Shown here piece after piece: positions 23,261 to 61,897 of a stretch of DNA of 64,000 nt. How positions within the stretch are numbered: the first letter of the stretch is position 1; each line of letters starts with the position of its first letter. Origin of the DNA: Methanobacteriota archaeon (GTDB lineage Archaea; Thermoplasmatota; Poseidoniia; Poseidoniales; Thalassarchaeaceae); the NCBI GenBank assembly GCA_002722595.1, contig PBMO01000003.1, forward strand, positions 11,588 through 75,587. Direction: 5' to 3'. The notes under the pieces were generated by a model. It saw only the letters and a program-made list of their open reading frames with translations. It was not told where the DNA came from and ran no database searches. A program made the translations under genes and the position numbers.

Positions 23261-24262
23261 ATGGTCGCACCAAGGGGACGTGTCGTTTGCTTTGGTGAAG
23301 CAATGTTTCGAACATGTCAGGAAAGAGTGACGCCCGGTGGTTCGGAATACAACGTAGCTTGTGCATTGGGCCAATTAGGTGTCACCACATCTTGGGTGAG
23401 CGCATTACCGATTATCGAATCAGACATCGATAACGTTGCTAGGAAATCCAATGTACACCTAGAGATTGTGCGTTCAGAAGGGGTAGTTGGTACGTACTTG
23501 GTCGACCAAAGTAAAGAAATTGTAGATTACGACCGAAAGAATTCTGTATTTGCAAATCTTGATCCTAAAGATTTTGACTGGAGGAAACTACTCACAGGAG
23601 CCAGATGGTTGGTTGTGAGTGGTATAACTCCTCTATTGGGTCATGGACCTAGGTCTTCTTGGGCTTCTGCACTCACCTTTGCCGAGCTAGATGGGACACT
23701 AATTGCATTAGATTTGAATCATCGTCCTGCTCTTGGAACTATTGATGAGCTGTGGAGTATAATTCGGCCTCGCATACGCATGTTCCACATCGTTGTATTG
23801 TCCTCCGAATCATTGTCAATTATTGCCGAAAGGGAGGGATTTGGGCGGCCTACAACATACGCAGAAAATATTCAGGCCCTTGCCGATTTACCAAGGAAAT
23901 TCCTGATTCCACATCTTTGCTGTACATTCAAACGCCCTGAGTCACAAGGGCGACAGATGCGTTGGTCAGTTGTAGCACATGCCTTTGGAATAGATACGAC
24001 AGAAAATGATGCTGTGAACCACTTACCGGTGGAGTATTTGGGTGGGGGTGATGCTTGGTTAGCCGGTTTTATTGATGCATTGAGTGAGCATGGACACGGG
24101 CCAGTCTCACCACTAATTGGGGCAATGAGGGGGGATTTACTTGCTGCATTGAGCCAAAATACGTTTGGAGATGTATCGATTGTAACTAGAGAAGAACTAG
24201 ATGAATATGAATCAAGAAGAGTGTGGGATTCGAATCAGAAACAGAGAAAATTATGCATTTGA
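23261..24262 (+). CDS. kdgK: PfkB-family sugar kinase, 2-keto-3-deoxygluconate kinase-like.
   Basis: It has VVCFGEAMFR at the N-terminus and GGGDAWLAGFIDAL (PfkB signature 2). It lies next to the KDPG aldolase gene. Confidence 0.8.
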   Translation: MVAPRGRVVCFGEAMFRTCQERVTPGGSEYNVACALGQLGVTTSWVSALPIIESDIDNVARKSNVHLEIVRSEGVVGTYLVDQSKEIVDYDRKNSVFANLDPKDFDWRKLLTGARWLVVSGITPLLGHGPRSSWASALTFAELDGTLIALDLNHRPALGTIDELWSIIRPRIRMFHIVVLSSESLSIIAEREGFGRPTTYAENIQALADLPRKFLIPHLCCTFKRPESQGRQMRWSVVAHAFGIDTTENDAVNHLPVEYLGGGDAWLAGFIDALSEHGHGPVSPLIGAMRGDLLAALSQNTFGDVSIVTREELDEYESRRVWDSNQKQRKLCI

Positions 24263-24272
24263 GGGACACTAT

Positions 24273-24914
24273 ATGCAGAAACTGATCAAAAGATTTCGTG
24301 AAGCAGGTGTTATTGCGATACTAAGAGGGAATAACCCAAAACGGTTGGAGGAGCGTGCATTTGAGCTGGTTGATTTAGGTTGCAAAGTAATCGAAGTGAC
24401 TCTTGACAGCCCATCTGCCTTAGACATCGTGCATAAACTGAGTACTCAATTGAATCCAGAGGAAGTTCTGGTAGGTGTTGGAACATTACTTGATGTCGAA
24501 ATGATTGATGATTGTATCGAAGCAGGTGCTAAATTTGCTCTTTCTCCTGTATCGCCACCACTTATGATTGAGAAATGCCATGAAAAAGGACTTCTTGCAA
24601 TACCGGGAGTATCTACACCTGATGAAATGAATGATGCAATAAACCGTGGAGCGAAATTAATCAAATTGTATCCAGCCTCTAGTTGGGAATCACAAATGTT
24701 AATTGGAGTTAAAACTCCATGGATTCCAGTTGGTGGTATTGACCAGAACACTATCACTGAATGGCTCGACAAGGGTGCATTTTGCGTAGGGATGGGAACG
24801 CATCTTTGTGGTTCGGACTTGAGCAGAGATGACGACAATGGTTGGGATGTAAAAGAAGCACAAGTAGCACGGGACATATTCAAGGAACTCCAACGAAGAG
24901 GAGGGGTTGCGTGA
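24273..24914 (+). CDS. eda: 2-dehydro-3-deoxy-phosphogluconate (KDPG/KHG) aldolase.
   Basis: AGVIAILRG, IEVTLDSP, VGVGTLL and KLYPA match the Eda family. The listed ORF starts at 24201, inside kdgK. The ATG at 24273 follows the kdgK stop at 24262. Confidence 0.85.
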   Translation: MQKLIKRFREAGVIAILRGNNPKRLEERAFELVDLGCKVIEVTLDSPSALDIVHKLSTQLNPEEVLVGVGTLLDVEMIDDCIEAGAKFALSPVSPPLMIEKCHEKGLLAIPGVSTPDEMNDAINRGAKLIKLYPASSWESQMLIGVKTPWIPVGGIDQNTITEWLDKGAFCVGMGTHLCGSDLSRDDDNGWDVKEAQVARDIFKELQRRGGVA

Positions 24915-26092
24915 CTAGTATTCGTTCGGCTGTTTGTGTGAGGTGCCCTCCAAGGTGGCTCCTCTTCCGCGTTGAAACGGCTGATGGAAGTGTTGGCTGG
25001 GGTGAAGCAATTGGCGATTTACATGAAGAACTAGAAAATGCCCTTAATGCACTCGGTGAAAGAGTACAGGGCGAGGATATACATGATATTTCTAGACTTA
25101 TTGAAACACATCGAAAATCACGATTCTGGAGAGATGGACCAATACTAGATTCAGCCTTATCTGCACTTGAGATTGCTCTCTGGGATCTCAAAGGCAAAGA
25201 GTTTGGTGCACCAATATACGAACTTCTTGGAGGAAAAGTGCGAGACAAAGTAAGAGTGTACAGAAACCTTTGGGGCCGTGACCCTGAGGAATTTGCGGCA
25301 TCAGCATCTGAAGCAATATCTCAATCGATGACAGCAGTCAAGGTAAGTCCAGCAGGACCCACTCCCAGTGTTGTATCCAGAGAAAGTCTCCGTGGGATGG
25401 TTGCTATTGTTGACAAGATTCGCGACTCCGTAGGCCCTGAAATCGATATCGCTGTCGACCTGCATGGTCGACTTACTCCTGCTGCCTCGAGACAAGCAGT
25501 GCACGCATTGTCGAAGTTTGATTTGTTCTTCATAGAAGAACCATGTTTACCTGATGGTGGTGCTGTACATATTGCTGACCTAAGGGCTCTACGTACTGCC
25601 CAACCAGTAGCCATTGCAACAGGTGAAAGACTGCGTAGTCCGTACGCTTTTTCGCAACACCTTTTTCCTAATCCAGTTGTAGACATTATTCAACCAGATC
25701 TGAGCATGGTGGGAGGAATACAAGCGGCGCTGAATATCGGAGCGATGGCAAGCGCAGCCCAAATCGCCTTGGCACCTCATTGTCCGTATGGCCCTGTTCA
25801 ATTAGCCGCTTCATTACAACTTGCCGCATCTTGTCCATCTCACTTGATTCAAGAGTTCCAGTCATTAGGAGGAGCCGGGTCAGGAGGCGGTATACCTGGG
25901 GGCGGGCAAAATTGGGCATTTGATCTTCTTGAGCAGTCGTTTGAAATCGAGAATGGACATGTCGATGTTCCCCCGAAACCAGGACTGGGAATTTCAGTAT
26001 TGGAGGAAGAAATTGGTGAGTATATGGCAATGTGGAATCCACATCCGCCAACTGTTTGGTCTCATCCTGATGGAAGCTACGCAGAGTGGTAA
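24911..26092 (+). CDS. Enolase-superfamily sugar-acid dehydratase (gluconate/galactonate/mannonate dehydratase-like).
   Basis: It has LLFRVETADGSVGWGEA, ALWDLKGKEFGAPIYELLGG, DLHGRL and FIEEP metal-ligand motifs. The GTG at 24911 overlaps the eda stop (GTGA), which suggests translational coupling. The listed ORF start at 24842 lies inside eda. Confidence 0.85.
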   Translation: MTSIRSAVCVRCPPRWLLFRVETADGSVGWGEAIGDLHEELENALNALGERVQGEDIHDISRLIETHRKSRFWRDGPILDSALSALEIALWDLKGKEFGAPIYELLGGKVRDKVRVYRNLWGRDPEEFAASASEAISQSMTAVKVSPAGPTPSVVSRESLRGMVAIVDKIRDSVGPEIDIAVDLHGRLTPAASRQAVHALSKFDLFFIEEPCLPDGGAVHIADLRALRTAQPVAIATGERLRSPYAFSQHLFPNPVVDIIQPDLSMVGGIQAALNIGAMASAAQIALAPHCPYGPVQLAASLQLAASCPSHLIQEFQSLGGAGSGGGIPGGGQNWAFDLLEQSFEIENGHVDVPPKPGLGISVLEEEIGEYMAMWNPHPPTVWSHPDGSYAEW

Positions 26093-28339: not shown

Positions 28340-28404
28340 CACGCAGCCTACGACAGCAACTCAGTCAAGAGTGTGACGGTTGAATGTGGAACAGGCTCTT
28401 GACC

Positions 28405-29214
28405 ATGAACCCTATCCCTAGTAACATGCGAGTTGTCATAACTGGCTCTGCTGGCCTCATAGGAGGCATTGTCTATGACCATCTATCTGCAATGGGTCAT
28501 CAAGTGATAGGGATTGATCGCCCACTACAGGAATGGTTAGCAGCAGGCAGAAATGTAGAGGATGAAATGGCGCGTAAGAGGGTGGACTGTGAAATCGATT
28601 TGTCAAAAATTTCCGACTCTGAATTGTGCGCAATCCTAGAGGGAGCTGATTGTTTAATTCATCTTGCAGCGGATGCAAATCCCTCTAATTCGGATTCGTC
28701 GATGATTCGAAACAATATCGAGTTGACTACAACGATATTCAGGTGTGCAAGAGACATACAAATTAGGAGGATTATTGTTGCTTCAAGTGGACTTTCGCAA
28801 GTAGGGCTTGAACCTTTGTTTGAGAAAGGAGGGCCAATGCATGGAAAATTAATCCAGATTGAGGATGGAATTGCACCAACTTCAACGTATGGTGCTTCGA
28901 AAATATATGCAGAGATAATGGCAGAAATGCATTCGAGAACTCATGGCATAGAAACTATTGCTGTTAGAATTGGAACTGTTATACCAGATGAAACAGAACA
29001 TTGGCGCAGAGGAGGTCGACTACAGGCCACCGCATTTTTGGCAGAAGATGTTCGCAGATTCTTTGAAGCAGCTTTACAAAATCCAATAGATGGATACTTG
29101 CTAACGTCTGCTCAATCAGACTCACCAGGTAGGTTTCTTGACCTTGAACCTGGGCTTTCGGTACTCAATTGGTCACCAATAACTTGGCCAATTGGCCCAG
29201 AGAATCTGAAATGA
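28405..29214 (+). CDS. NAD-dependent SDR of the epimerase/dehydratase family, uronate-dehydrogenase-like.
   Basis: It has VVITGSAGLIGG (Rossmann fold) and YGASKIYAE (YxxxK). The AVRIGT...FLAEDV tail resembles Udh. An alternative ATG lies at 28426. Confidence 0.72.
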   Translation: MNPIPSNMRVVITGSAGLIGGIVYDHLSAMGHQVIGIDRPLQEWLAAGRNVEDEMARKRVDCEIDLSKISDSELCAILEGADCLIHLAADANPSNSDSSMIRNNIELTTTIFRCARDIQIRRIIVASSGLSQVGLEPLFEKGGPMHGKLIQIEDGIAPTSTYGASKIYAEIMAEMHSRTHGIETIAVRIGTVIPDETEHWRRGGRLQATAFLAEDVRRFFEAALQNPIDGYLLTSAQSDSPGRFLDLEPGLSVLNWSPITWPIGPENLK

Positions 29215-31220
29215 ACCTGTTCGTACCCCCGCCGTCCATGAGTGGTAAAGTCACCCTGGGTATTGATGTAGGGACTACTGCCACAAAGGCACTATTACTT
29301 TCAGAAGATTCCAGTTGGGAATTGCATTCATGGCCATCAGATGAAAGCCTATGGGGAAATCTTCGAAATTGGTTGGCTGAGAAAAAATGCCAAATCGAAC
29401 GTGTAGGTATTACAACTCATGGCCCATCGGTAGTTGTGATTAACGAAAGAGGAATACAAGGTAAACCGATATATTGGTTTGATGAAATACCCGAGAGTTG
29501 TATTCGAGAAAATGAAGGTGAACATATACTCCCGCAAACTAGGGCTTGGGTTCCGTCCAGAATTGCACAATGGATAGTTGAAAATGGTCCATTAAATGAT
29601 GGCATTGCTGTTCAACTTAAGGACATGTACAACTGGGAACTTACCGGCAATATTGCAAGAGATTCTCGATCGATGCGAGGTTTTTCTAGTGAAGAATACA
29701 TGCATCTCCCAGAGAATGTGATCGGTAAAGTGACAAAGAAAGGATCTGAATTATCAGGAATTGATGAAGGTGCTGAAGTCATATGTGGTTGCGATGATTT
29801 AACTGCAGGAGTCCTTGGTATCGGCGCCCATGAAGGTGTATTATTCAATCTAGCAAATACCTCTGAACATGTTGGCCAAGTTGGGGGGAGATATATCGAT
29901 GGCATGAGTTGGTTACCACCACTAGGCCGCTTGCCATCAATAAGTTACAATGCCACTCCTGGAAGAAAACAAAATCAACCACTGGACCAAAACTCTGAAT
30001 CTGTTGACCTGATTCGTGAAAAATTTCCTGAACTTGAAATGTGGATGGGGGGTGGTCTTACTAATGTCCAGTCAATCGTTGATTCAAGACACGCAAAAGT
30101 CTGTGCAGGGGCAGAAGTTAGTGCATTGGGTGTAGCAAAGTTGGCAAGGAAACAAAAACAGGCAGTCATATTTGGTGCCGGAAAGGTAGGAAGAGGTTTT
30201 CTTGCACAATTGCTGGTAAGATCGGGTTGGAAGATCATCATCTCTGATACACATTTACCTACGATCCAAGAATTGAAAAAATCTGGGCAATGGACAATAT
30301 TCAATCTGTACACTGGAGAAGAGGATTTGATTACTGCAGATGGGATTTTCCTCAATGAAAATATTACTGAAAGTGTGTTGAGGGATACGTCACTAATTAT
30401 GACTTCAATGGGGGCGAACCATCTAGAAAAATGGGCACACGATATCCGTGAAATTTTGTGTGATAGGCTCGAACAAGGTTGCATCGATTTGATTCTTGCC
30501 GAAAATCATCCAAGACCTGCAGAGGCAGTACGTTTGGCTCTCCTAGAAAATGCAACCGAATATCAAGAAAAATTGATTGAACAAAATCTTGGAATATCTC
30601 AAGCACAGGTATTGCGTTCATGTATAGAACCTGATTTGTCTCAAAAACCGACGACTGTGCAAATCCAAAACCACTGGACTTTGCCAATGGATGGTGATGC
30701 TCTACTTACGAAACTAGATGTTTTGGGGTTCAATCCACTACCGAATTTTGAGAAGGAGTTGACGCGTAAACTTTTCACGTACAATTGTGTAAATGCAATG
30801 ATATGCTATATTGGATATCTGAAGGGGTATGAATGGCTATCAGAAGCAGCTAATGATGAATATATCTCTAATCTTGCTCTAAAGGCCGGAATGGAATCTT
30901 CAGCAGCACTGGTATCTGCATATAAATTCGAAAAACACGAACAAGAACATTGGTGCAATGAGGCATTGAAAAAATATCAAGACAGGAGTATTAGAGACCC
31001 AATCGAACGCAATGCAAGGGATCCTATCAGGAAATTAGGCCCCTATGAGCGTTTACTCGGACCAATTAATCTTTGCAAAAAAGAGGGTTTGCCCTTTGAT
31101 ACACTACTAATTGGTGTTGCAGCAGCACTCAGATACCCTGGAGCCAAAATACATCATGAACTCAATCTTGAGGGGGCATCAATACAACTTGATTCTCTAC
31201 TTGCCACAGAATCAATTTGA
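29211..31220 (+). CDS. Fusion protein: compact FGGY-family carbohydrate kinase (N-terminal about 325 aa) joined to a mannitol-dehydrogenase-family oxidoreductase (MtlD/UxuB-like, C-terminal about 345 aa).
   Basis: The kinase half has VTLGIDVGTTATKALLL and MGGGLTN...SALGVAKLA (FGGY N and C motifs). The dehydrogenase half has AVIFGAGKVGRGFLAQLL, KLFTYNCVNAMICYIGYLKGY and DPIRKLGPYERLLGP (MtlD family). The ATG at 29211 overlaps the upstream stop (ATGA). Confidence 0.75.
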   Translation: MNLFVPPPSMSGKVTLGIDVGTTATKALLLSEDSSWELHSWPSDESLWGNLRNWLAEKKCQIERVGITTHGPSVVVINERGIQGKPIYWFDEIPESCIRENEGEHILPQTRAWVPSRIAQWIVENGPLNDGIAVQLKDMYNWELTGNIARDSRSMRGFSSEEYMHLPENVIGKVTKKGSELSGIDEGAEVICGCDDLTAGVLGIGAHEGVLFNLANTSEHVGQVGGRYIDGMSWLPPLGRLPSISYNATPGRKQNQPLDQNSESVDLIREKFPELEMWMGGGLTNVQSIVDSRHAKVCAGAEVSALGVAKLARKQKQAVIFGAGKVGRGFLAQLLVRSGWKIIISDTHLPTIQELKKSGQWTIFNLYTGEEDLITADGIFLNENITESVLRDTSLIMTSMGANHLEKWAHDIREILCDRLEQGCIDLILAENHPRPAEAVRLALLENATEYQEKLIEQNLGISQAQVLRSCIEPDLSQKPTTVQIQNHWTLPMDGDALLTKLDVLGFNPLPNFEKELTRKLFTYNCVNAMICYIGYLKGYEWLSEAANDEYISNLALKAGMESSAALVSAYKFEKHEQEHWCNEALKKYQDRSIRDPIERNARDPIRKLGPYERLLGPINLCKKEGLPFDTLLIGVAAALRYPGAKIHHELNLEGASIQLDSLLATESI

Positions 31221-31246: not shown

Positions 31247-34200
31247 ATGGCACCACCTGACACCACCGATGAAGAAGATGAGGGTGTGGAGAATCAGCCA
31301 AGAGGACCACCATCCCGTGGCCCACCACCAAGAGGACCGCCCAATAGTGGGCCACCTGCCCGCAGCCCCCCATCCGGGCCGCCATCTGGGCCACCATCCG
31401 GGCCGCCATCTGGGCCACCATCCGGGCCGCCATCTCGGCCACCATCTCGGCCACCATCCGGGCCGCCGAGAAAAGCACCTCCAAGTGAAAAATTCCAACC
31501 ACCTGTTTCTGAACCTGAACCTGAACCACTGGAAACACCTGAACCAGAATCTGAAGGAATAGAAGAACCTGAAATCGAGAATACTCCAGATAAGCCTGTA
31601 AAGCGTGGTCCGCCCAACAGAGGACCGCCTGTACGGAGAGGACCACCATCAAGAGGTCCGCCTGTAAACAAGTCACCACCCTCGGATGTAGAATTAGAGC
31701 TCACCTCAGGAGCCCCGACCACATTTGATTCAGCATTAGCCAAAATGACTGGAGGTGAGCCCGAGGTTATTGTCGATGCTGAAGAATTGGCTGCACAAGA
31801 AATGGCTGAAGCCAAGACAATAGCTGAGGAAACTGCTGCTGCTGTTGAAGAAGAAAGTGGAAAATGGGAAGAAATTGAAGAGGAAGAGGAAGAACCACTT
31901 CCTGATATTGAGCCACTCCCAAGTGAACCCGCTGAAGGAAGTCGATATCCTAAATTGAAGAAAGCAGCAACTGGACGTCTCAAAGATGCGCCATTGACAG
32001 GACACATTGTCCCACACACTCATTGGGATCGGGCTTGGTATCTCCCATTTCAAAAATATCGCTACAAACTAGTTGAGTTGGTTGATGACCTATTGGATTT
32101 GCTTGAAAATAATCCAAAGGCTTACCCAACGTTTGAACTCGATGGGCAAACTGTAGTGTTAGAGGATTATCTTGAAGTTAAGCCGGAAAATGCTGCACGC
32201 ATTACTAAATTAGTGCAGAAAGGGCGATTGAATATTGGCCCATGGTATGTCCTTCCTGATGAATATATTGTGGGTGGAGAAGCTCTAGTACGTAACCTAC
32301 TGATGGGGCATAGAACTGCACAGCGCTGGGGAGGGAGATCTGAGGTTGGATATGTCCCGGACCCATTTGGGCATGTATCCCAATTACCGGCAATTCTGAA
32401 AGGAGCTGGTTTGGATTCGTTCATTTTTACTCGAGGAGCAGGTCCTTGGATTCAAGAAGCTGGCGGTATTTTCAACTGGTATGCCAGTGATGGGAAAACG
32501 AAGGTCCTAGCAGTACAACAAGTTCCTGATTACCCCTCGTTGATGGCTTGGGGCTTTGAAGAGCGGCCACTTGACCGTAAGGATTCTACAGATGTTAACG
32601 TTGATACTGCGATGGAAAGAATGCAGCGATTAATGGATAAGCATGAAGCAATGGGTTGGAAGCCCGATGTACTCTTGTTTGGCCAAGGAAGCGATCACAC
32701 CCACCCCCAACCAACACTCCCAATGTTAATTGGAAAAGCAAGTCAGAAGTTTAACGGGAAAATTCGATTTGAGCATTCATCATTCCCTGCCTATATCGAG
32801 GCACTGAAAAGTTGGTTAGGGAAAAAGAAGGTCTTCAAGTATCAAGGTGAACTGCATTCTGGATGGGATCGAAATATCCTTTCAGGAGTATTTAGTGCAC
32901 GGTTGTATCTCAAGAGAAGCAATGACCAAACAATGCGATTGCTAAGTGACCGAATTGAGCAATTGAGCGCGATTTCATGTGCACAAGGAGGACGATTCAG
33001 AGGTGGGCGGCTTGACTTGGCTTGGCGAGAGGTACTCCGAAACCATCCCCATGATGATATCTGTGGATGTAGTGTTGATGAGACCCATGATGACATGGAT
33101 GTTCGATTTAAACACGCGCAACAAATCTGTGCAATGCTCGAAGATGACCTCAGACTTGAGTTGCGTGAACAGATGGATTTGAGTCATGAGGACAGAGATG
33201 CCGTTCCCGTATTGCTGCACAACCCATTGGCTAAGGCTTGGTCAGGTACACTGACTATTGATCTCGCAGTACCTAAGTTCAGGTGTTGGTTGGATCATGG
33301 ACTTCCTGTGAAAATCGAATTAGCATCACCAGCTGGAGACTTCAAGGTACACACGTCTGGCCTACAAATAACTCCAAAATCATGGGACTTGCATGTACAT
33401 CATGATCGTGTTGCAAATGTAGAACTACCGCGTGTAATCGGTAGAATCCATGTCCATCGCTTACCTCCGGGCCTATCCGTTGCACATATTCTTCCAGGTC
33501 GAGGTTCATACAACATGCCTGCTGAACCTGTCAATTTAGGAGGTGAATTTGGCAGAACAGATTGGATGGATAATGGCCTTGTACGCGTGCTATTCAGAGC
33601 AGATGGGAGATTCGACGTACTAGATCATTCAACTGGACGGCATATTGTTGGCGCAGGTCGATTGGAGGATTCCGAGGATGCAGGAGATTCCTACGATTGG
33701 TCAGCTGGAGGGCATCCTGTACCACAAGCAGCGGGACGTGGAGATAAAATGAGCGAGAGAGTATCAGCATTGGATTCTAGATTTGCAGATGCTGAAGAAG
33801 GTAATCGGCAAGTTTACCTCACTATCGAAAATCATGATGATTGGACTGCTACTGTTAGACTTCACATTGCTTGGGCACTACCCGCAAGATTCGATGACAT
33901 CACTCAGAAACGAAGTGAAGAAATGGAATGGAATACCATTGACCACTACATCACAATGCGGAGTGGGCACTCAATGGTTGAAGTGGAAACATGGGTCAAC
34001 AATACCTGCGAAGACCACCGTTTGCGTTTACACGTACCAACTGGTGTAAATTGCAAGAGTGTTTTTGCAGGTGGAGCATTTGATGTGATAGAAAGACCTG
34101 CTAATTGGCCACACCATGCGGATTGGGAACAGCCACATGTACCTACTCAGCATTTCAGCGACATGGTAATGGCGCAAGACAAGGGTGGTGGAGTTGCAAT

Positions 34201-34804
34201 ATTCTGCCCTGGTTCTAATGAATACGAAGCCATAACTGGTGAAGATGGGACCACATTAGCAATCACATTGCTGCGATCAACTGGATATCTTAGCCGAGAT
34301 GGATTCGCGAGTCGGAGAAATAGGGCTGGACCTGTTTTTGCAGCACCAGGTGCACAGTGCAAAGGTGCATCTTGGACTAGATGGGGAATTATGGCGTATG
34401 AAGACAGTTGGGCTGATGCAAATGTACACCAAATTGCCGAGACATATGCATGCCAAGTGAGCATTCTTTCTGCACTTCCACGCCCACAACTAGATGGAGA
34501 ATTTGATGAAGTTTGTACTCCCGGTTCAAAGGGTAAACGTATGCAATCAATACGGTTGGTTGGAACTGGTCCAATGCCAATAATTTCCTGCATGAAACCC
34601 GCTGCTGATGGTAATGGGAGTGTTGTTCGCCTTTACAACCCGACTGATGAAACATGGGAAGGAAGAATTGAAACAGATCTACCCTTGTTCAATGTGCGAG
34701 GTTGTGATTTATTAGAAAATGAAACCACTAAACCTCGTATTTCGAAATCGGGATGGCCTGCAAAGTTAGGCCCAAAGTCGATTGGAACATGGCGATTCAA
34801 CTGA
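31247..34804 (+). CDS. GH38 alpha-mannosidase-family glycoside hydrolase with a disordered Pro-rich/acidic N-terminal extension of about 250 aa and no signal peptide.
   Basis: GHIVPHTHWDRAWYLPF is the GH38 N-terminal signature. The remaining 930 aa or so are collinear with cytosolic GH38 enzymes. A GAGGTGA box lies upstream of the ATG. Confidence 0.85.
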   Translation: MAPPDTTDEEDEGVENQPRGPPSRGPPPRGPPNSGPPARSPPSGPPSGPPSGPPSGPPSGPPSRPPSRPPSGPPRKAPPSEKFQPPVSEPEPEPLETPEPESEGIEEPEIENTPDKPVKRGPPNRGPPVRRGPPSRGPPVNKSPPSDVELELTSGAPTTFDSALAKMTGGEPEVIVDAEELAAQEMAEAKTIAEETAAAVEEESGKWEEIEEEEEEPLPDIEPLPSEPAEGSRYPKLKKAATGRLKDAPLTGHIVPHTHWDRAWYLPFQKYRYKLVELVDDLLDLLENNPKAYPTFELDGQTVVLEDYLEVKPENAARITKLVQKGRLNIGPWYVLPDEYIVGGEALVRNLLMGHRTAQRWGGRSEVGYVPDPFGHVSQLPAILKGAGLDSFIFTRGAGPWIQEAGGIFNWYASDGKTKVLAVQQVPDYPSLMAWGFEERPLDRKDSTDVNVDTAMERMQRLMDKHEAMGWKPDVLLFGQGSDHTHPQPTLPMLIGKASQKFNGKIRFEHSSFPAYIEALKSWLGKKKVFKYQGELHSGWDRNILSGVFSARLYLKRSNDQTMRLLSDRIEQLSAISCAQGGRFRGGRLDLAWREVLRNHPHDDICGCSVDETHDDMDVRFKHAQQICAMLEDDLRLELREQMDLSHEDRDAVPVLLHNPLAKAWSGTLTIDLAVPKFRCWLDHGLPVKIELASPAGDFKVHTSGLQITPKSWDLHVHHDRVANVELPRVIGRIHVHRLPPGLSVAHILPGRGSYNMPAEPVNLGGEFGRTDWMDNGLVRVLFRADGRFDVLDHSTGRHIVGAGRLEDSEDAGDSYDWSAGGHPVPQAAGRGDKMSERVSALDSRFADAEEGNRQVYLTIENHDDWTATVRLHIAWALPARFDDITQKRSEEMEWNTIDHYITMRSGHSMVEVETWVNNTCEDHRLRLHVPTGVNCKSVFAGGAFDVIERPANWPHHADWEQPHVPTQHFSDMVMAQDKGGGVAIFCPGSNEYEAITGEDGTTLAITLLRSTGYLSRDGFASRRNRAGPVFAAPGAQCKGASWTRWGIMAYEDSWADANVHQIAETYACQVSILSALPRPQLDGEFDEVCTPGSKGKRMQSIRLVGTGPMPIISCMKPAADGNGSVVRLYNPTDETWEGRIETDLPLFNVRGCDLLENETTKPRISKSGWPAKLGPKSIGTWRFN
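31371..31467 (+). repeat. In-frame tandem repeat, 12-bp period (24-bp perfect unit catccgggccgccatctgggccac x2, then variants), encoding (GPPS)n.
   Basis: This was read directly. The 24-mer at 31371-31394 equals that at 31395-31418, and 31419-31442 differs by one base. The peptide is PPSGPPSGPPSGPPSGPPSGPPSRPPSRPPSGPP. Confidence 0.9.
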
Positions 34805-35680
34805 ATGGAGGTTATACTGGTGAAACGCATAGATGCACATGCACCTGTGAGAATTGATTTGGCAGGAGGTTGGACGGATGTCCCACCCTATACACATGAT
34901 GTAGGTGGTGAAGTCGTAAATGTTGCAATTAACATATATGCACATGCTAACCTAGAAGTTGATAGTGATGGAATTCTAACGGTGAGTTACCGATGCGATG
35001 CACCTGTTGGGTCGGGGCTTGGAACAACGGGGGCAATAAATGTCGCATTAATGGCAGCAATTTCCAATTCGGAAGATGCTGAAGAGAAGGCGTATCAATT
35101 TGAGGCACTGCTAGGAAACACAGGTGGAAGACAAGATCAATGGGCAGCAAAATGTGGTGGCTTTAATCACCTCATGTTCATCGGTGATGCTGTAGAAGAA
35201 CTACCATTTGACCCACCTAGAAGTGCAAAATTCTGGCTGCACAAACATCTCATAGTTGCCAATACTGGAATCCCTCACGTAAGTGGAGATCTACACAAAA
35301 ATATATGGAAAAAATATGTCGAAAAAGACCCTGGAGTAATTGATGGTTTGATGAAAATACGTATGGCTGCAAGGAAAATGGCACAGGGTTTGGACCAAGA
35401 TCGTAGGGATTTAGTTGTCGAAGCATTCAGTGAAGTTTGTGAAGGTGTTGATGCCCTTGATCCTGCTTTACACGACCCCTTTAGGAGCGTAGTTGAACCG
35501 ATGCTCCAAAGCCGTGATATAATGGGTTGGAAAGCACTTGGAGCCGGTGGTGGCGGTTGTGTTGCGATGTTGTGTGCACCAAATCGGCAAGATTCTGTTA
35601 AAGCAATATGCGAAGATGCTGGCTGGTCAATTTTGGACTGGGACTATGACGAGATAGGATTAGTTGTCAATGCCAACTAA
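34805..35680 (+). CDS. GHMP-family sugar kinase, fucokinase-type.
   Basis: APVRIDLAGGWTDVPPY is the fucokinase-type N-terminal motif. PVGSGLGTTGA is GHMP motif II. GAGGGG lies near the C-terminus. The start abuts the GH38 stop. Confidence 0.8.
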   Translation: MEVILVKRIDAHAPVRIDLAGGWTDVPPYTHDVGGEVVNVAINIYAHANLEVDSDGILTVSYRCDAPVGSGLGTTGAINVALMAAISNSEDAEEKAYQFEALLGNTGGRQDQWAAKCGGFNHLMFIGDAVEELPFDPPRSAKFWLHKHLIVANTGIPHVSGDLHKNIWKKYVEKDPGVIDGLMKIRMAARKMAQGLDQDRRDLVVEAFSEVCEGVDALDPALHDPFRSVVEPMLQSRDIMGWKALGAGGGGCVAMLCAPNRQDSVKAICEDAGWSILDWDYDEIGLVVNAN

Positions 35681-36542
35681 TCCCATCGATTTTTGTTGAA
35701 AGTGTCGAAATTGCGGGGATTAATCTCTCAATGATATCCGCGTGCCAATCGGGAATCCCATCCATGGATTCTGAACGCGCAAAAAGAAGTGGCCATCGCC
35801 CCATAGAGGGTGGCCATAACTCAACTTTACCGGGTAAATTGAGTGAGAATGGTTTGGGATTATTCGCCCATTCCATATCTTCTGCTAGGTGTGAAAGTGC
35901 ACCTCTTGAAGAATTGCAAAGTGCCACTGTTCTCAAACCATCCAAACGATTTGCCTCTTTTTCATCTGGCCGATCTAATTCTCCAGGTGGGGCTCGCTCG
36001 AAAAGAAGGAAGCCACGCGGTGAGAAATGTTGATTCCAACCAACTCCCAGAAATAGGGTGAACAAAGAGCACCATTCAGCTGGAGCACGAACGTACCAAC
36101 CCCACCTATCGGCCTTGTTGTCAACCTCAAGATGCCACGTCCACTCCGGAAGTAAGGACTCAACCCGCCTGCGAATTTCAGACAATAATGCCCGATTTTC
36201 CACCACTGATTCCCCATAATTTTCAGAAGGTTGCCCGATTCTATTGGAAATCCATTCAGCCAAATCGGAATCCATGCAGGCAGGAGAAAGTGACCATCGA
36301 TGGACCCCCAATCTCTCAGGGCCCTCATTCATCTTTACACTCTGTTTAGTCCATCTATGAATCGAATCGGCATCATTTCCTGCACCGATAATAAATGAAA
36401 TTCTATCATCTTCTAAGTGTATTTGTTGAGGCGTTGCTTTGACTCGTAACTCGCCTTCAGGTTGTGGTTCATGACCCCCTTCAAGTGGATGGTCGTCGAA
36501 ATCAATCTCTTCCCATAACCTTGCGAAAAGTCGGCCCTCCAT
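35667..36542 (-). CDS. Hypothetical protein (291 aa), last gene of the minus-strand glycan operon.
   Basis: It has an ATG start 24 nt downstream of the preceding gene and is Trp-rich and soluble. I recognised no family. Its 3' end overlaps the convergent kinase gene by 14 nt. Confidence 0.6.
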   Translation of the reverse strand: MEGRLFARLWEEIDFDDHPLEGGHEPQPEGELRVKATPQQIHLEDDRISFIIGAGNDADSIHRWTKQSVKMNEGPERLGVHRWSLSPACMDSDLAEWISNRIGQPSENYGESVVENRALLSEIRRRVESLLPEWTWHLEVDNKADRWGWYVRAPAEWCSLFTLFLGVGWNQHFSPRGFLLFERAPPGELDRPDEKEANRLDGLRTVALCNSSRGALSHLAEDMEWANNPKPFSLNLPGKVELWPPSMGRWPLLFARSESMDGIPDWHADIIERLIPAISTLSTKIDGISWH

Positions 36543-36566
36543 GGTTGGCGGAAACAGTGATGAGAC

Positions 36567-38000
36567 TTAATCCATCACAGAAAGGGGTGGGATAGGATTA
36601 TCGGATAATCTCTGAAGCAGAATCTCCTTGCATGTTGATCGATTTAGAGGTGCATTTGATAGTAAAATCGACCAAATTTCCTCCGTCCACTCTGCAAAAT
36701 CAACTGCCCATTGATACGAACCGATGATGAATTCTGTGTGTTCACAAACAGGAAGGGATTCAGCCTCTGCTAAATGGCTACGAGCCATAGCAGAAGCCAA
36801 TGCGCGTTCTGATTTTAGCAAATCTTCCATACCATTCTCCGCCACTGTGTTTGCGATATGTGCACATGCTCCAGGTACAAAGTTGTCGTCTCGAAACCAA
36901 TTCTCAGCAGGCATCCAATATTGATTATTGAGTAATCGCCAAACATCAAGATATCTAAGACGTAGGATTAATTCAGGACTTTTCTCGAAAAGTCCCTGCG
37001 CTTCTTTTGGTATGCCGTTGTCTGATAGCCAATCACTGAGGACATCGGAAACATCACAATGTGGATCTTTAGTTAAGGCAATAGCTGCATGCAAATTCAT
37101 ATCTGCCCATAATTCACTCTTGGCATGACGTTTTGACCAACCACCCCCTAGTGGAAGAACCCAACTTCCAACCCAATCTAATGGCTGTTTATTTGCGAGA
37201 CCTGTTCTCCCTCTTTCACCACATTCTACTGGGCCCTGGCTCCATTCAATACCCTGCCAATTCGGCAATATACCGATAAATTCATACTCACGTTCGCATT
37301 GAAATTCAATCAGCCTAGGAGGTCCTTCGTTCTGTATGGTCGGATTCCAAGGTTGATGGCGCCAATAATCAGTCATTGTGTGCTTAACTGATACGAAAAA
37401 TCGAGGATCTCCTGCCCATTTTTTTAGAACCTTAGCTTGTAAATTACGATTTGCATGGATCCCATCCTCGCCTAAATCCCAAAGCCTTAGAATACAGCGT
37501 TTACCCATCTCACGACAAACAACTGTTTCAAGGAATTCTATCACTTTCCTCCTTCGCGTAATTTCATCGATTGATGAACAATCAATACACTGACACTTCA
37601 ATAAATCAATGCGTTTGTAATTAGAATCTGGACTGCTAAAAGTTTCACCATAACGGAAAACCATGCCGCGAATACTTGGAACTTTTTCGATAACATCTCT
37701 GATTGCCTTTGCAGTAGCCTCCCAACTACTCTCTTTCCCAGGGCAACCTGCTTCAGAATCCACAGGTAGTGTGAATAGGTCGTCCATTAGCCATACTCCT
37801 AAACCTGCATCACCGGCAGCATTTATTCGCGAAATCAGAGATTCATTCATTCCATACAAACATCCACTCATTTGGTCTGCAATGACCACGTCAGTGAATC
37901 CCAATCTCAACAAACGCTCAGGCGAACGATAATCGGTTTCCAGACTCTCATGTAAAGGTGAATCGTGGACGTATGAGATAATCATCCGCTTTTCGGACAT
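36567..38000 (-). CDS. Hypothetical cytosolic protein, possibly a divergent TIM-barrel glycoside hydrolase (GH67/GH115 alpha-glucuronidase-like).
   Basis: SVKHTMTDYWRHQPWNP and LIEFQCEREYEFIG resemble the GH67 K-x-G-P-x-DFQ-x-REP and EFQITQEYxG motifs. IRGMVFRYGETFSSPDS resembles FGGFLVKADSEGxPGP. The ATG at 38000 (MSEKRM) lies 2 nt after the upstream stop. The listed start at 38030 overlaps the upstream gene. Confidence 0.6.
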   Translation of the reverse strand: MSEKRMIISYVHDSPLHESLETDYRSPERLLRLGFTDVVIADQMSGCLYGMNESLISRINAAGDAGLGVWLMDDLFTLPVDSEAGCPGKESSWEATAKAIRDVIEKVPSIRGMVFRYGETFSSPDSNYKRIDLLKCQCIDCSSIDEITRRRKVIEFLETVVCREMGKRCILRLWDLGEDGIHANRNLQAKVLKKWAGDPRFFVSVKHTMTDYWRHQPWNPTIQNEGPPRLIEFQCEREYEFIGILPNWQGIEWSQGPVECGERGRTGLANKQPLDWVGSWVLPLGGGWSKRHAKSELWADMNLHAAIALTKDPHCDVSDVLSDWLSDNGIPKEAQGLFEKSPELILRLRYLDVWRLLNNQYWMPAENWFRDDNFVPGACAHIANTVAENGMEDLLKSERALASAMARSHLAEAESLPVCEHTEFIIGSYQWAVDFAEWTEEIWSILLSNAPLNRSTCKEILLQRLSDNPIPPLSVMD

Positions 38001-38002
38001 CC

Positions 38003-39031
38003 CTACAGCTCCAGAGCAACTAATTCCCAATCGTGCTCAGCAAATGCTGGAGTTGCTCGCTCCATGAACTCGTCGTCTGGAATAATGCCAATAATAGCAC
38101 CTCCAGACCCTGGTTGCTTCGCACAGGAGCCAAGGCTCCTAGCCAATTTGACCATTTCCAAGTTTTTACCGAGGGCTTCTTCCCCAAATAACTCAGTGCG
38201 GAGATCAAAATTACGATCTATTTCTCTGGATAAAGCTGCCATATCTCCTGCAACGAGGGCTTCTTTACCTCGATGAGCGCACCAAGCTAATTCGTTTACA
38301 ACACGTACCATGACCGGTTCCTGCTCCGCCCACCTTTGAGGAAGGTCTGCGTGTACCTTACCTGATTCGATTCCAGTACCCCCGTGTGCCATCCACATTG
38401 TAGGGAGTAATGACTCTTCCAAATGGGAATAAGCCCCCCAACCGCGTCCAATCATCAGTTCTTCACGGAAATCCATGTGCAACATTTTGTTGTAGGCTTG
38501 TGGCAATCGATCTTGGAGACCTGCATGAATACCCAACCTATCAGTTTCTACCTTTAGCACCATATCAGCAACGGCATGAGGTTGTAATGCAGTTCCCAAA
38601 CCGTGATGTGTGAGAAGGCAACGAATCACAGATGTTACAATCGCAGATGACCCGGCTAATCCAACCTGACGAGGGATATTTGTATCGAGTTTAAGTTTGA
38701 ATCCACTCGACTCCATAGCAAGTCCACTAGATACACATTCATCTTGGAAATGGATGATTGAGGCCAGCACCAAACGATAGAGGCCGTCCTCACTCAAATC
38801 AGGTGGATTTGCTGACAAATCCGACATGGATTTGTATTCCCGTTCATCACCTCCACAATCAAGTTGTAGTGAAAAATCCCAACGATTCTCATGAGGAGTA
38901 AGCACACATCGTGCGCGCCAATTATTTGCTAGGGCGGAGATGCATTGGCCATTGTATCCATCAGAGGGGTTCCCAAGAAGTCCAATCCTAGCTGGAATTG
39001 AGCAATAAACGGCCTCGGCGCCTCTGCGCAT
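38003..39031 (-). CDS. GHMP-family sugar-1-kinase, glucuronokinase-like.
   Basis: ARIGLLGNPSDGYNGQCISALANNW resembles the plant glucuronokinase N-terminus as I remember it. GLAGSSAIVTSV is GHMP motif II. PGSGGA is motif III. Confidence 0.75.
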   Translation of the reverse strand: MRRGAEAVYCSIPARIGLLGNPSDGYNGQCISALANNWRARCVLTPHENRWDFSLQLDCGGDEREYKSMSDLSANPPDLSEDGLYRLVLASIIHFQDECVSSGLAMESSGFKLKLDTNIPRQVGLAGSSAIVTSVIRCLLTHHGLGTALQPHAVADMVLKVETDRLGIHAGLQDRLPQAYNKMLHMDFREELMIGRGWGAYSHLEESLLPTMWMAHGGTGIESGKVHADLPQRWAEQEPVMVRVVNELAWCAHRGKEALVAGDMAALSREIDRNFDLRTELFGEEALGKNLEMVKLARSLGSCAKQPGSGGAIIGIIPDDEFMERATPAFAEHDWELVALEL

Positions 39032-39086
39032 AACCTCTCGACGAAGTTCACGGGTATCTTATTTCCTCTAACACCTCGCCACACAC

Positions 39087-39794
39087 ATGGCGGGGCCAAA
39101 TCAAGTCAATTGGGCTGTTATCCCAGCAGCAGGACTTGGAACAAGAATGTCTGAAAACGCAGTACTGGGGTGCAAAGAACTGATAGAGATCAAAGGAAAA
39201 ACGATGCTTGAGCACACCATTGAAGAACTGGAAATCGCTGGATTTGAACAAATTGTAGTTGTTTCTTCGCCCAACAAGCCAGCCATCGATGAAGTACTCT
39301 CAGAAAGAGGAGTAGAAATTGTTCATCAGGACGAACCAAATGGGTTAGTTGATGCCGTTAATTGTGCACGAAACATTACAGGTAGGGGGCCTTGTATGAT
39401 TGCTCTTCCTGATGTCATGTTCCCAGATACAAATCCTTCCGCTAGACTGCTCGCAGACTATTCTGGTGAAACGCTACTTGCAGTAGTTCGAGTGGAAAAA
39501 CCCTGGGGTTTACAACTCAAAGATACAGGAAGGATTACCAAGATGGAAGGTCGTAAAATTCTCGAGATTTCAGACAAGCACCCTGAGAAGGATTTTCCAA
39601 TCGGAGAATTACGAATTACTGGCCGTGCTATTTGGACTGAAGCATTCTGGGAATTCAATGATGATAACGAAATTTCGACATTACGCAAGTTGGCTTCGGA
39701 GCAAAAATTATTGTATTCTCATGTAGAAACAGAATACATAGATGTAGGTAACCCTAAAGGTTACCAGTATGCACAATCTATTTTCAATCGATGA
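39087..39794 (+). CDS. Sugar-1-phosphate nucleotidyltransferase (GalU/RmlA-like NDP-sugar pyrophosphorylase).
   Basis: It has the AVIPAAGLGTRM signature, KELIEIKGKTML and a 235-aa GT-A-like fold length. Confidence 0.8.
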   Translation: MAGPNQVNWAVIPAAGLGTRMSENAVLGCKELIEIKGKTMLEHTIEELEIAGFEQIVVVSSPNKPAIDEVLSERGVEIVHQDEPNGLVDAVNCARNITGRGPCMIALPDVMFPDTNPSARLLADYSGETLLAVVRVEKPWGLQLKDTGRITKMEGRKILEISDKHPEKDFPIGELRITGRAIWTEAFWEFNDDNEISTLRKLASEQKLLYSHVETEYIDVGNPKGYQYAQSIFNR

Positions 39795-40617
39795 GGATTC
39801 GGCCTCCAACCTCTGGAACGACAAAGGCTTGTTCTGGAGCTCTTTGAACTATTTCATCAACAAAAATTTGTGGGTTGACTGTGTTGCCTGGATCCATCCC
39901 ATAGTGCATAGGGACTATCAATTTCGGATTCAAAGCCAAAGCCAAATCTACAGCCTCATCGTGGCGTAGGTTGTCATTGCCATTTATGCATGCGAAGACT
40001 AGGTCGTAGTGCTTCGAAGCATTTTGCAATGCCTCATGCCAGCCGGGATACGGTCGACTATCGCCCATGTGTAGCACGGTAGAGTCTCCAAACTTTACCA
40101 CATAACCAAGGTACCAAGCCCCATCCTCATTGACGTCGAGTTCTTCATGTGCGGCTGGAATCGCATGGATTTGGATATCTCCAATCATCTTGGAATCCGA
40201 ACCAAGCATGGAAATAATACGGCTCTGTTCAATTCCCCATCCTGTAAGCAAATCGACGGAACGATTAGGCACGACGAAACGCAGGTTAGGGAAATGTGTG
40301 GCTAGTCGAGGAATCGATTCCGGGCAGATATGATCATCATGCCAGTGGGTACAGAGTACCAAATCAGGTTCTGGATGCTCTTCGGGTTTCAGTGGGAACT
40401 CACCAAGTAACTTCCCCCATCGATCACCTGCAAACAAATCTCTCCACCATGGATCAATAAGGATAAGGGGTCCGTTCTGGAAACGTACCATCCATGATGC
40501 TTGTGTTAACCACCACGCTGCAATGGGGGACTCTATGGAAGATTCCATCTGTGCTTTCAGTTCTGCTCCTCTGCATATCGGTTGAGTACGGTGTTCGGGA
40601 ACTGCCCATTCTGCCAT
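39784..40617 (-). CDS. Metallo-beta-lactamase-fold hydrolase (UlaG-like; possible lactonase).
   Basis: It has LILIDPW and CTHWHDDH (HxHxDH), with later His/Asp ligands (AAHE, HMGDS, PMHYG). The listed ORF begins at GTG 40635. The first ATG is at 40617. Confidence 0.8.
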   Translation of the reverse strand: MAEWAVPEHRTQPICRGAELKAQMESSIESPIAAWWLTQASWMVRFQNGPLILIDPWWRDLFAGDRWGKLLGEFPLKPEEHPEPDLVLCTHWHDDHICPESIPRLATHFPNLRFVVPNRSVDLLTGWGIEQSRIISMLGSDSKMIGDIQIHAIPAAHEELDVNEDGAWYLGYVVKFGDSTVLHMGDSRPYPGWHEALQNASKHYDLVFACINGNDNLRHDEAVDLALALNPKLIVPMHYGMDPGNTVNPQIFVDEIVQRAPEQAFVVPEVGGRILID

Positions 40618-40654
40618 GACGTTGCGAACCCTCACAGGACCTTCAGGTTACCCT

Positions 40655-60804: not shown

Positions 60805-61794
60805 TCAGTCGCTCGTTTTTACATCAACGCCAGGGGCACCTAATCTAGAGGTCATAGTATGCCCTCCTACCATTTCGATGGCCTCTGCAGTTCTTCGTGG
60901 TTCTTGGGTTAATGCAATCATGCAACCTCCCCCTCCTGCACCAGTCATTTTAGCACCCAAACTGGTTGGTAATGCGGCCTCCACCATCCTGTCTAAATCT
61001 GAATCAGATACACCGATTCCCTGCAATAGTCGGTGACATTCATTCATTGCGATTCCAACTGCCTGCAGATTGCCAAGAGATAGTGCTGTTGCTCCGGCTC
61101 GAGTTACATTTCCAATACGTTCGATGTCCTCCATCTTCTCAGGCTGTCTCTTTAGAAGATCTGCTACCTTTGCAACCATTTGAGAAGTGGGACCGGGGCG
61201 TCCTGTAAAACCAATCACTAGACTGGCTTCTTGGAGCGATTGAGGCAAAGAAACACTGTGAATTTCCCATGTTCTTTGAACACCATCTATTCGTAAATCA
61301 CGAGTGTATTTCCATTCTGCCAAACTTTCCCTCTTATCTGAAACAAATACAGCACCACCAAGTGTAGATGTACTGGTATCGATTGGACTTGCCCTCCCTC
61401 CTTGAGCCTCCGCTTCAGCCAAATGGGCAGTCGTTGCAATACCTCTAAGTGGCAATTCATCTACCGGGGTGCCTCGAATATGCAGGATACCTGCTGCAGT
61501 TGCCGCACAAATTGCTGCGCTGGAACCAAGACCTGCGGCGCCAAACAAATCACTCTCAATTTGAACCGAAAGAGGAGCACCGCCATCTCCTGTCCACATA
61601 CGCTTGAGAATTGCATCCAAGTGAGGATGGCGGGATTTGTCAAATTTCATGCCATCAATCTGCCAACCAGATTCTGATTTCTCAATTTTAACCCGGATTC
61701 TGGCATCAATTGCCACAGCTACAGCCGGTTGGCCATAAACAACTGCATGCTCGCCAAAAAGGATGCATTTCCCCGGGGCGCTGGCAAGGACCAT
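60805..61794 (-). CDS. mvk: Mevalonate kinase (GHMP family).
   Basis: It has APGKCILFGEHAVVYGQPAVAVAI, GLGSSAA and KMTGAGGGG. The ATG is at 61794 (MVLASAPGK). The listed start at 61851 adds 19 aa. Confidence 0.88.
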   Translation of the reverse strand: MVLASAPGKCILFGEHAVVYGQPAVAVAIDARIRVKIEKSESGWQIDGMKFDKSRHPHLDAILKRMWTGDGGAPLSVQIESDLFGAAGLGSSAAICAATAAGILHIRGTPVDELPLRGIATTAHLAEAEAQGGRASPIDTSTSTLGGAVFVSDKRESLAEWKYTRDLRIDGVQRTWEIHSVSLPQSLQEASLVIGFTGRPGPTSQMVAKVADLLKRQPEKMEDIERIGNVTRAGATALSLGNLQAVGIAMNECHRLLQGIGVSDSDLDRMVEAALPTSLGAKMTGAGGGGCMIALTQEPRRTAEAIEMVGGHTMTSRLGAPGVDVKTSD

Positions 61795-61897
61795 GTTGGG
61801 GCGTATGGTATACACCTCATATCGGTTCTGCCTATCAAGCGAGTGAACCAAAGTTCAAGGGAGGGGCGCCTGTAGGGATAGTTAGTGAGGCTACACT

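Follow-up and report, generated by a model that had tools for sequence, protein, structure and literature searches.

A 64,000-nucleotide stretch of DNA (the window) has been analysed from an archaeon of the family Thalassarchaeaceae, which belongs to the Marine Group II archaea (MGII; MGIIb-type) of the order Poseidoniales and whose genome is 76% complete. The analysis was centered on two GHMP sugar kinases, K1 and K2, and on the genes that lie with them between positions 34805 and 40635 (K1, U291, U487, K2, NTPT and MBL). On balance, these genes probably belong to a cytosolic sugar-processing island composed of two units. Unit B comprises U487, K2 and NTPT and would be involved in the activation of a glucuronate-type sugar. 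Unit A, which is older and more widespread, comprises the genes for a GH38 alpha-mannosidase, K1, U291, MBL and an M28-MFS permease, together with a DUF2817 gene that this genome has lost, and would constitute a mannosidase unit served by the kinase K1.

Glucuronate is favored as the sugar processed by unit B because two independent lines agree, the kinase family of K2 and the best fold match of U487. Every substrate named below, the anomeric position of the phosphorylation, the nucleotide used and the destination of the NDP-sugar (own glycans or central metabolism) are inferred. The open reading frames of both kinases and of NTPT, the sugar-kinase motifs and a GHMP motif II in each, as given in a preliminary description of this DNA, were all found.

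The kinase K2 and its partners U487 and NTPT

The K2 gene (38003..39031, minus strand) codes for a GHMP kinase of 342 amino acids, in which residues 14-38 read ARIGLLGNPSDGYNGQCISALANNW, the GHMP motif II is PRQVGLAGSSA and the Pfam domain GHMP_kinases_N was matched with 42.2 bits. A database search with K2 has revealed, together with many bacterial proteins, fish GKUP proteins annotated as 'glucuronokinase with putative uridyl pyrophosphorylase' (E-values of about 1e-61 to 1e-63, 38-41% identity, 89-97% coverage), among them the zebrafish protein zgc:172049 (GKUP; P0098) with an E-value of 1.2e-61, 38% identity and 96% coverage. Close MGII homologues of K2 carry the JGI name 'glucuronokinase'. 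In the phylogenetic trees, K2, the zebrafish GKUP (DrGKUP) and bacterial homologues formed one clade, with support of 99-100, against HddA, FKP and mevalonate kinases (MVK), and the MGII K2 sequences were monophyletic (support 100) inside the glucuronokinase family, where they constitute a divergent archaeal clade. The motifs ARxGxxGNPSD, IPRQVGLxGSSA, GLQDR, NFDLR and GSGGA were invariant in an alignment of 11 sequences that included K2. With family search, trees and motifs in agreement, K2 is, as judged from its sequence, a member of the glucuronokinase family, as the preliminary description had proposed. Its substrate is inferred from the family to be D-glucuronate, for which the kinase domain of the zebrafish GKUP was specific in assay; the fused pyrophosphorylase domain of that protein was barely active (PMC3938481). 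No solved glucuronokinase structure turned up in a PDB sequence search with K2. The term 'eukaryote-type', previously applied to K1 and K2, is misleading, because both families are abundant in prokaryotes, with thousands of homologues. A K2 homologue of the Armatimonadetes was located in an exopolysaccharide-synthesis cluster; in the two bacterial contexts inspected an adjacent transferase gene was found in neither, and the second locus was uninformative.

The U487 gene (36567..38000, minus strand) probably starts at the ATG at 38000, which yields the 477-amino-acid form found in databases, and a TTG start extends the open reading frame to 38030 (487 amino acids). The protein is a sequence orphan. 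No match was found for U487 in Pfam or NCBIfam, a lenient Pfam scan of 21 family members (E-values up to 10) was also empty, and the alignment profile retrieved nothing when compared with PDB sequences. An AF2 model built from 21 members (pLDDT 90.8, pTM 0.89) displayed eight beta/alpha repeats and then a helical domain, that is, a predicted TIM barrel with a C-terminal helical domain and a GH67-like fold. The best six matches of this model in a Foldseek search against the PDB were all GH67 alpha-glucuronidases (E-values of 4e-12 to 4e-11, TMq 0.57-0.62), and the GH67 structures matched include 1k9d, 1mqq, 1l8n, 1gql and 1h41. Since the sequence, profile and Pfam searches were empty, it is the predicted fold that links U487 with GH67.

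The U487 family consists of 62 clusters, and its named members are MGII or Poseidoniales sequences except for two or three distant matches with 24-36% identity. Residues H12, D42, D74, R116, E119, R172, K206, D211, E232, Q234, E236, R237, E238 and E240 and a GGGW motif are invariant in the family, and the invariant acidic and basic residues are located at the C-terminal ends of the predicted barrel strands. Such a mixture of carboxylate and basic residues in the model would suit a glycosidase binding an acidic sugar. Two bacterial contigs carry distant homologues of U487, one adjoining genes for a lactonase, a GDSL esterase and a GH5 protein and the other a DUF3826 gene, neighbors that fit carbohydrate-active enzymes.

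The NTPT gene (39087..39794, plus strand) encodes a protein of 235 amino acids of the sugar-1-phosphate nucleotidyltransferase superfamily, with matches to the Pfam families NTP_transf_3 (PF12804, 56.7 bits) and NTP_transferase (PF00483, 39.4 bits), both above their cut-offs. Its best NCBIfam match was GalU, with 65 bits against a cut-off of 326.8; the other equivalog models scored lower, and the matches to MurU models were weak. The best PDB match was YngB, a UTP-glucose-1-phosphate uridylyltransferase, and the AAGLGTR motif of NTPT aligns with YngB and GalU. By these scores, NTPT appears to be no equivalog of GalU, RmlA, GlmU or MurU. In the preliminary description, a housekeeping GalU or GlmU unrelated to the cluster would have spoken against a linked function; NTPT was found to be cluster-specific, both its position next to K2 and its phyletic pattern tying it to that kinase.

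Within the window, the stop codon of K2 is followed after 2 nt by the U487 ATG at 38000, and U487 is separated by 24 nt from U291 (35667..36542, minus strand, 291 amino acids), the last gene of the K2-U487-U291 string. K2 and NTPT are divergent, with a 55-nt spacer, and NTPT is convergent with MBL (39784..40635, minus strand, 283 amino acids). At the other end, U291 and K1 are convergent and their 3' ends overlap by 14 nt.

Searches over 151 Poseidoniales genomes located K2 in 20 genomes, belonging to five genera of one family, and U487 in an identical set of 20. NTPT was present in 18 genomes, all within the 20 that contain K2, and U291 in 22, namely the K2 genomes plus two genomes of the MGIIa genus g20. 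The K2-U487 module is restricted to genera with larger genomes. In eight loci from five Thalassarchaeaceae genera, the genes were found in the order SDR, FGGY/MDH fusion, GH38, DUF2817, K1, then U291, U487, K2, NTPT (where present) and MBL, and finally M28-MFS. The arrangement from K1 to MBL is not due to chance, because it recurs in eight loci and five genera. The island of genus g20 consists of GH38, DUF2817 and K1, U291 and MBL, and M28-MFS, without U487, K2 and NTPT; in this genus MBL is located directly upstream of U291, with a 4-nt overlap, and U291 faces K1. Because this island exists without all three genes, U487, K2 and NTPT behave as one discrete unit between MBL and U291.

Purpose and substrate of unit B

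In the proposed route, oligosaccharides would enter the cell, possibly through the two AmpG-like MFS permeases that flank the island, and U487 would cleave from the imported oligosaccharides a uronic acid, for which glucuronate is the best guess from the modelled fold. K2 would then phosphorylate the released uronic acid at C1, and NTPT would turn the resulting sugar-1-phosphate into a nucleoside diphosphate (NDP) sugar, probably with UTP. These roles of K2 and NTPT are suggested by their sequences.

Several observations weigh against this proposal. The stem of the MGII K2 clade is long (1.23 substitutions per site), and K2 lacks the GY(Y/L)GGxRL segment of the canonical members compared (aligned bacterial sequences, fish and one fungal sequence), reading EDGLYRLVLA with the Arg alone retained; shorter MGII homologues of K2 lack most of this region. 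Because of the long stem and the missing segment, the substrate of the MGII K2 proteins may have shifted. U487 has neither sequence similarity to GH67 nor the GH67 N-terminal domain, and its model is also matched by GH84 O-GlcNAcases and GH20 hexosaminidases, at E-values of 1e-8 to 1e-5. NTPT was considered as an orthologue of the pyrophosphorylase domain of fish GKUP, an orthology left unsupported because BLASTP detected no similarity. NTPT was also not found in the K2-bearing genus g2 (two genomes, 98% and 93% complete). K1 mostly occurs without K2, U487 or NTPT, and a dehydratase, a KDG kinase and a KDPG aldolase encoded nearby give the island a catabolic flavor. Genus g2 keeps K2, U487 and U291, and in one of its loci MBL directly precedes K2.

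In the strongest of the alternatives, the same enzymes serve a catabolic purpose. The sugar-1-phosphate or NDP-sugar would then be a Leloir-like entry intermediate, converted by a mutase, an epimerase or a decarboxylase and finally burned, without salvage into the cell's own surface glycans. Genes for a PfkB kinase of the KDG/KDGal type, a KDPG/KDPGal aldolase and an enolase-superfamily dehydratase are adjacent to each other at 23261-26092 of the window, the dehydratase scoring 328 bits with the NCBIfam galactonate-dehydratase model against a cut-off of 311, and the three genes look like a sugar-acid branch of the DeLey-Doudoroff or Entner-Doudoroff type. An extended SDR protein (28384-29214, plus strand) resembles Azf, the NAD-dependent glucose-6-phosphate dehydrogenase of haloarchaea, most closely, if weakly (65 bits), and more than it does nucleotide-sugar epimerases. 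The kinase, the aldolase and the dehydratase, with an SDR similar to sugar 1-dehydrogenases, surround the island; the two AmpG-like permeases and the glycosidases indicate feeding on imported glycans, and the module is confined to larger-genome genera. However, neither a mutase nor an NDP-sugar epimerase nor a decarboxylase has a demonstrable link with K2 and NTPT, and a search of 11 genomes of the genus did not find the canonical uronate isomerase UxaC, so that the standard catabolic route of uronates is not evident, although these genomes are 63-86% complete and this is weak evidence of absence. Characterized glucuronokinases serve the supply of UDP-glucuronate (UDP-GlcA), and the Armatimonadetes homologue is placed in a cluster for exopolysaccharide biosynthesis. 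A purely catabolic purpose is therefore considered a serious possibility but a fairly doubtful one. Nucleotide-sugar dehydrogenases are present in 7 of 10 congeners.

A second alternative accepts the enzyme classes and questions the sugar: K2 and U487 would act on another uronic acid, on a sulfated or methylated sugar or on a hexosamine, with a changed kinase specificity and a GH84/GH20-like U487. The long stem of the MGII K2 clade and the loss of GYxGGxRL are in line with such a change, as are the GH84 and GH20 fold matches of U487. Strand 3 of U487 ends with a [DE]-D pair that resembles the DD motif of GH84. Against this, the GH67 E-values are four orders of magnitude better and more of the model is covered (TMq 0.6 versus 0.45), distant homologues have Ala or Gly in the first position of this acidic pair, and the kinase family and the hydrolase fold indicate glucuronate independently of each other. 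A sugar other than glucuronate is thus judged unlikely, slightly more so than the catabolic purpose, and activation of a glucuronate-type sugar is retained as the preferred function of unit B.

The short-form kinase K1 and the genes of unit A

K1 is encoded by an open reading frame of 291 amino acids (34805..35680, plus strand), in which a GTG at 34820 is the more likely start and yields 286 amino acids, the typical length of the homologues. It is a short-form GHMP kinase of the HddA/fucokinase (COG2605) superfamily, with residues 16-29 reading RIDLAGGWTDVPPY and a GHMP motif II of sequence PVGSGLGTTGA; the Pfam match to GHMP_kinases_N was marginal (21.9 bits against a gathering cut-off of 22.3). 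K1 was found in 102 of the 151 genomes and in 17 of 22 genera, as a single copy. The two kinases and the pyrophosphorylase had been described at first as one module, a view that was abandoned: K1 occurs throughout the Poseidoniales, mostly without K2 or NTPT, and K1 and K2 therefore do not form a single module.

The preliminary description had also noted a fucokinase-type motif in K1. In the crystal structure of FKP, the sugar is contacted by R592, D601, T602, Q761 and D762, with W599 stacked against C4-C6 of fucose and D762 acting as the general base (PMC11982464). K1 retains equivalents of R592, W599 and D601 (R16, W23 and D25 in RIDLAGGWTD), as well as Q761 and D762 (the QD of GGRQDQ), with T602 replaced by Val and W760 by Arg. 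In the trees, where the reference rows of PDB proteins were rebuilt from HMMER alignments and are partial, K1 and its nearest relatives formed their own clade (100/100), separate from the FKP clade, and a branch with support of 96/89 joined this clade with FKP and many uncharacterized clades to the exclusion of the HddA clade. The NCBIfam model of FKP was matched with 74.5 bits against a cut-off of 721, and the fucose-1-phosphate guanylyltransferase domain PF07959 had no match among the scanned proteins of the window, K1 being a stand-alone kinase. Thus the sugar-contact motif and the position outside the heptose-kinase clade of the tree (AU p 0.092, see below) stood, and orthology with FKP did not: from its score, its own clade and the missing fucose-pyrophosphorylase partner, K1 is apparently no FKP orthologue.

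K1 also lacks about 45 residues of the HddA structures, between the first hairpin and the strand that precedes motif II. The deletion is common to all MGII homologues and to a further large clade of proteins of 280-305 amino acids. When the alignment coordinates were mapped onto the published residue numbers of FKP, the missing segment corresponded to the adenine-contacting segment of that enzyme.

K1 could instead be a biosynthetic heptose-7-phosphate kinase of the HddA type, or another housekeeping kinase, located in the island by chance and unrelated to glycan recycling. JGI labels its homologues heptose-7-phosphate kinase, and HddA-type kinases rank first among its PDB sequence matches (3k85 with 86 bits, WcbL and 4n3o), ahead of FKP. 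The gene is single-copy and Poseidoniales-wide, and in small genomes it stands beside riboflavin genes and an MFS gene, with no glycosidase genes alongside. Constraining K1 to group with HddA costs 25 log-likelihood (lnL) units, with p = 0.092 in the approximately unbiased (AU) test, so that this grouping is disfavored rather than rejected, a result that counts among the points against the proposed assignment of K1. On the other side, the sugar loop of K1 reads GGWTD versus GGG[TS]D in all the HddA-clade rows inspected (three PDB structures, the K3 protein of the same genome and three representatives), and the equivalent Trp of FKP stacks on the sugar. The 96/89 branch sets K1 apart from the HddA clade, K1 reached 57.5 bits with the HddA model (cut-off 600), contig C22 of the genome carries a separate paralogue, K3, that belongs to the HddA clade, and K1 terminates the GH38 gene string in the island genomes. 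A housekeeping role of this kind is accordingly held to be improbable. HddA phosphorylates C1, and its earlier treatment as a non-anomeric kinase was an error.

The third COG2605 kinase of the genome, K3 (324 amino acids; contig C22, L041:8203-9177, minus strand), adjoins pyrB and pyrI, without obvious heptose-pathway neighbors; it scored 145 bits with the HddA model, has a GGGTD loop and falls in the HddA clade. A mevalonate kinase gene is located at 60805-61851 of the window (minus strand; TIGR00549, 205 bits, above the cut-off). Since K3 and the gene at 60805-61851 are separate genes, K1 and K2 are neither the HddA-clade kinase nor the mevalonate kinase of this genome.

Kinases of the K1 clade were also found on marine metagenome contigs, in P0307 (572 amino acids) and P0308 (527 amino acids), fused or read through to an N-terminal domain, either an NAD-dependent epimerase/dehydratase (SDR) or a CTP_transf_3 cytidylyltransferase; the P0307 cluster has unfused members too. 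A comparison has shown that these N-terminal partners are orthologues of neither the SDR of the window nor NTPT. The fusions lend weak support to a possible link with nucleotide-sugar chemistry, because the contigs are short and gene-calling read-through is possible. Another cluster, P0309, with 33 members from Poseidoniales metagenome-assembled genomes, contains K1 homologues (40% identity) whose catalytic motifs have degenerated, with DLGLKTTDG as motif II, GLDGGK as motif III and no GGRQDQ. These changes suggest that this lineage is an inactive or repurposed paralogue.

In unit A, the GH38 protein would release mannose, and K1 most likely would phosphorylate a small neutral sugar at C1, with mannose as a guess based on the gene context. 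The GH38 alpha-mannosidase gene (31247..34804, plus strand, 1185 amino acids) ends with a TGA at 34802-34804 that abuts the ATG at 34805 of the K1 open reading frame. Its product has all four GH38 Pfam domains and scored 388 bits, below the cut-off, with a mannosylglycerate-hydrolase model. By family matches, the extended SDR gene heads the GH38 gene string and is followed in it by a gene for a fusion of FGGY-like and mannitol-dehydrogenase-family domains (29169-31220, plus strand). A DUF2817 gene (about 366 amino acids) lies between GH38 and K1 in relatives (L031:7588-8688, with a Pfam score of 267 bits, and loci L025-L027, L030, L032, L075 and L076) and is missing in the window. In Thalassarchaeaceae with small genomes (L021, L023, L028 and L029) the island is missing, and K1 adjoins an MFS permease with a different large N-terminal domain; in L021, riboflavin genes (ribB-like and FAD-synthetase-like) are located on the other side of K1. 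The flanking genes P711, U333 and U197 match those of the window.

MBL is a metallo-beta-lactamase-fold hydrolase with a Pfam match to Lactamase_B_3 (70 bits) and a weak NCBIfam similarity to UlaG, the L-ascorbate-6-phosphate lactonase; its gene keeps its syntenic place in all the island loci. U291 is a conserved orphan protein without any match in Pfam or NCBIfam, including a lenient Pfam scan of family members. Its AF2 model had a pLDDT of 85.5, about 100 alignment columns are invariant across 13 orthologues, and a fold search returned nothing significant, the best PDB match having an E-value of 0.57. Two glycosidase candidates flanked by the kinases had been proposed initially; U487 keeps that status through its predicted glycosidase fold, with alpha-glucuronidases as best matches, and U291 was dropped as a second glycosidase, the fold search having returned nothing better than that E-value. 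The idea of U291 as a uronate mutarotase was set aside because U291 accompanies K1 and MBL where K2 and U487 are missing.

It is highly improbable that U487 is instead a TIM-barrel isomerase or lyase, for example a non-orthologous replacement for uronate isomerase, as might be suggested by the failure to find UxaC in the 11 genomes of the genus despite nearby mannitol-dehydrogenase-family, dehydratase, KDG-kinase and aldolase genes, and by a xylose-isomerase structure among the weaker fold matches (E-value of 2e-5), since GH67, GH84 and GH20 dominate the first 40 Foldseek matches, covering barrel and helical domain, and U487 strictly co-occurs with K2 and not with the dehydratase or aldolase genes.

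Relation to known systems and significance

The closest known route to that proposed for unit B is formed in plants by the glucuronokinase GlcAK1 and a UDP-sugar pyrophosphorylase, and in zebrafish by DrGKUP, a glucuronokinase fused to a putative uridylyl pyrophosphorylase (PMC2823444, PMC3938481). Over its full length K2 is homologous to the kinase domain of DrGKUP, with all the GHMP motifs kept, and in both cases a short nucleotidyltransferase of bacterial type accompanies the kinase, encoded by a neighboring gene in MGII and present as a fused domain in fish. K2 differs in belonging to a divergent archaeal clade and in lacking GYxGGxRL; the sugar source in MGII would be the glycosidase U487, not myo-inositol oxygenase, and NTPT differs from the pyrophosphorylase domain of fish GKUP in having no BLASTP similarity to it. 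With GH67 (Geobacillus AguA, 1k9d/1mqq; Cellvibrio GlcA67A, 1gql), its nearest characterized counterpart, the U487 model has in common a (beta/alpha)8 barrel followed by a helical domain, whereas U487 has 477 amino acids versus about 670-700, no N-terminal beta-sandwich and no sequence or Pfam similarity. If U487 is a glycosidase, as its model suggests, it would be a new family.

The Bacteroides fragilis FKP (PDB 5yys, 9iip; PMC11982464), the nearest characterized relative of K1, resembles it in RIDxAGGWTD, in the catalytic Asp of QDQ and in GHMP motifs II and III, and the split that sets the heptose kinases apart leaves K1 with FKP; K1 differs in its own clade, in the absence of a fused or adjacent fucose-pyrophosphorylase domain, in the replacements of T602 and W760 and in roughly 70 residues missing relative to FKP. 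The HddA/WcbL heptose-7-phosphate kinases (PDB 4n3o, 4usk, 3k85) share the COG2605 superfamily with K1 and gave its highest sequence scores among solved structures, but K1 has Trp for their Gly in the sugar loop, lacks about 45 of their residues and lies outside their clade in the tree. A further parallel is the recycling route of Pseudomonas, in which AmgK, an anomeric kinase of N-acetylmuramic acid (MurNAc), and MurU, a MurNAc-1-phosphate uridylyltransferase, take part. There, too, de novo synthesis is circumvented by means of a permease of the AmpG type, an anomeric kinase of the cytosol and a small uridylyltransferase; AmgK, however, is no GHMP kinase, the similarity of NTPT to MurU is far below the cut-off, and the sugars differ.

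Plants and some lower animals are the only organisms in which a route to NDP-glucuronate by way of a glucuronokinase is known to be established, and a text search of the literature found no report of such a route in archaea. The novel elements are the occurrence in archaea, the strict coupling with a GH67-like protein that is an orphan by sequence, and the short-form class to which K1 belongs. It may tentatively be proposed, as an idea with a limited chance of being right, that U487 represents an unrecognized glycoside hydrolase family of GH67-like fold, unlike any CAZy family in sequence as far as Pfam and PDB sequences show, and feeding a dedicated archaeal glucuronokinase/nucleotidyltransferase pair, which would constitute the first prokaryotic route for uronates from hydrolase through sugar-1-kinase to NDP-sugar, recycling algal uronates directly into activated donors, and that K1 represents a widespread class of short-form anomeric kinases without the usual adenine-binding segment.

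Should the route serve only as a catabolic entry, it would still represent a uronate pathway other than the canonical one, in genomes in which the search for UxaC found nothing. MGII archaea, which are uncultured, rank among the most abundant heterotrophs in the surface ocean, and their use of algal glycans has been deduced almost wholly from genomes. If the proposal is true, a likely new glycosidase family would have been identified, the compact enzymes might be of use in the chemo-enzymatic synthesis of NDP-uronates, and a defined, testable function would be provided for the U487 fold family and for the prokaryotic glucuronokinase-like kinases, both of which are orphan or unassayed.

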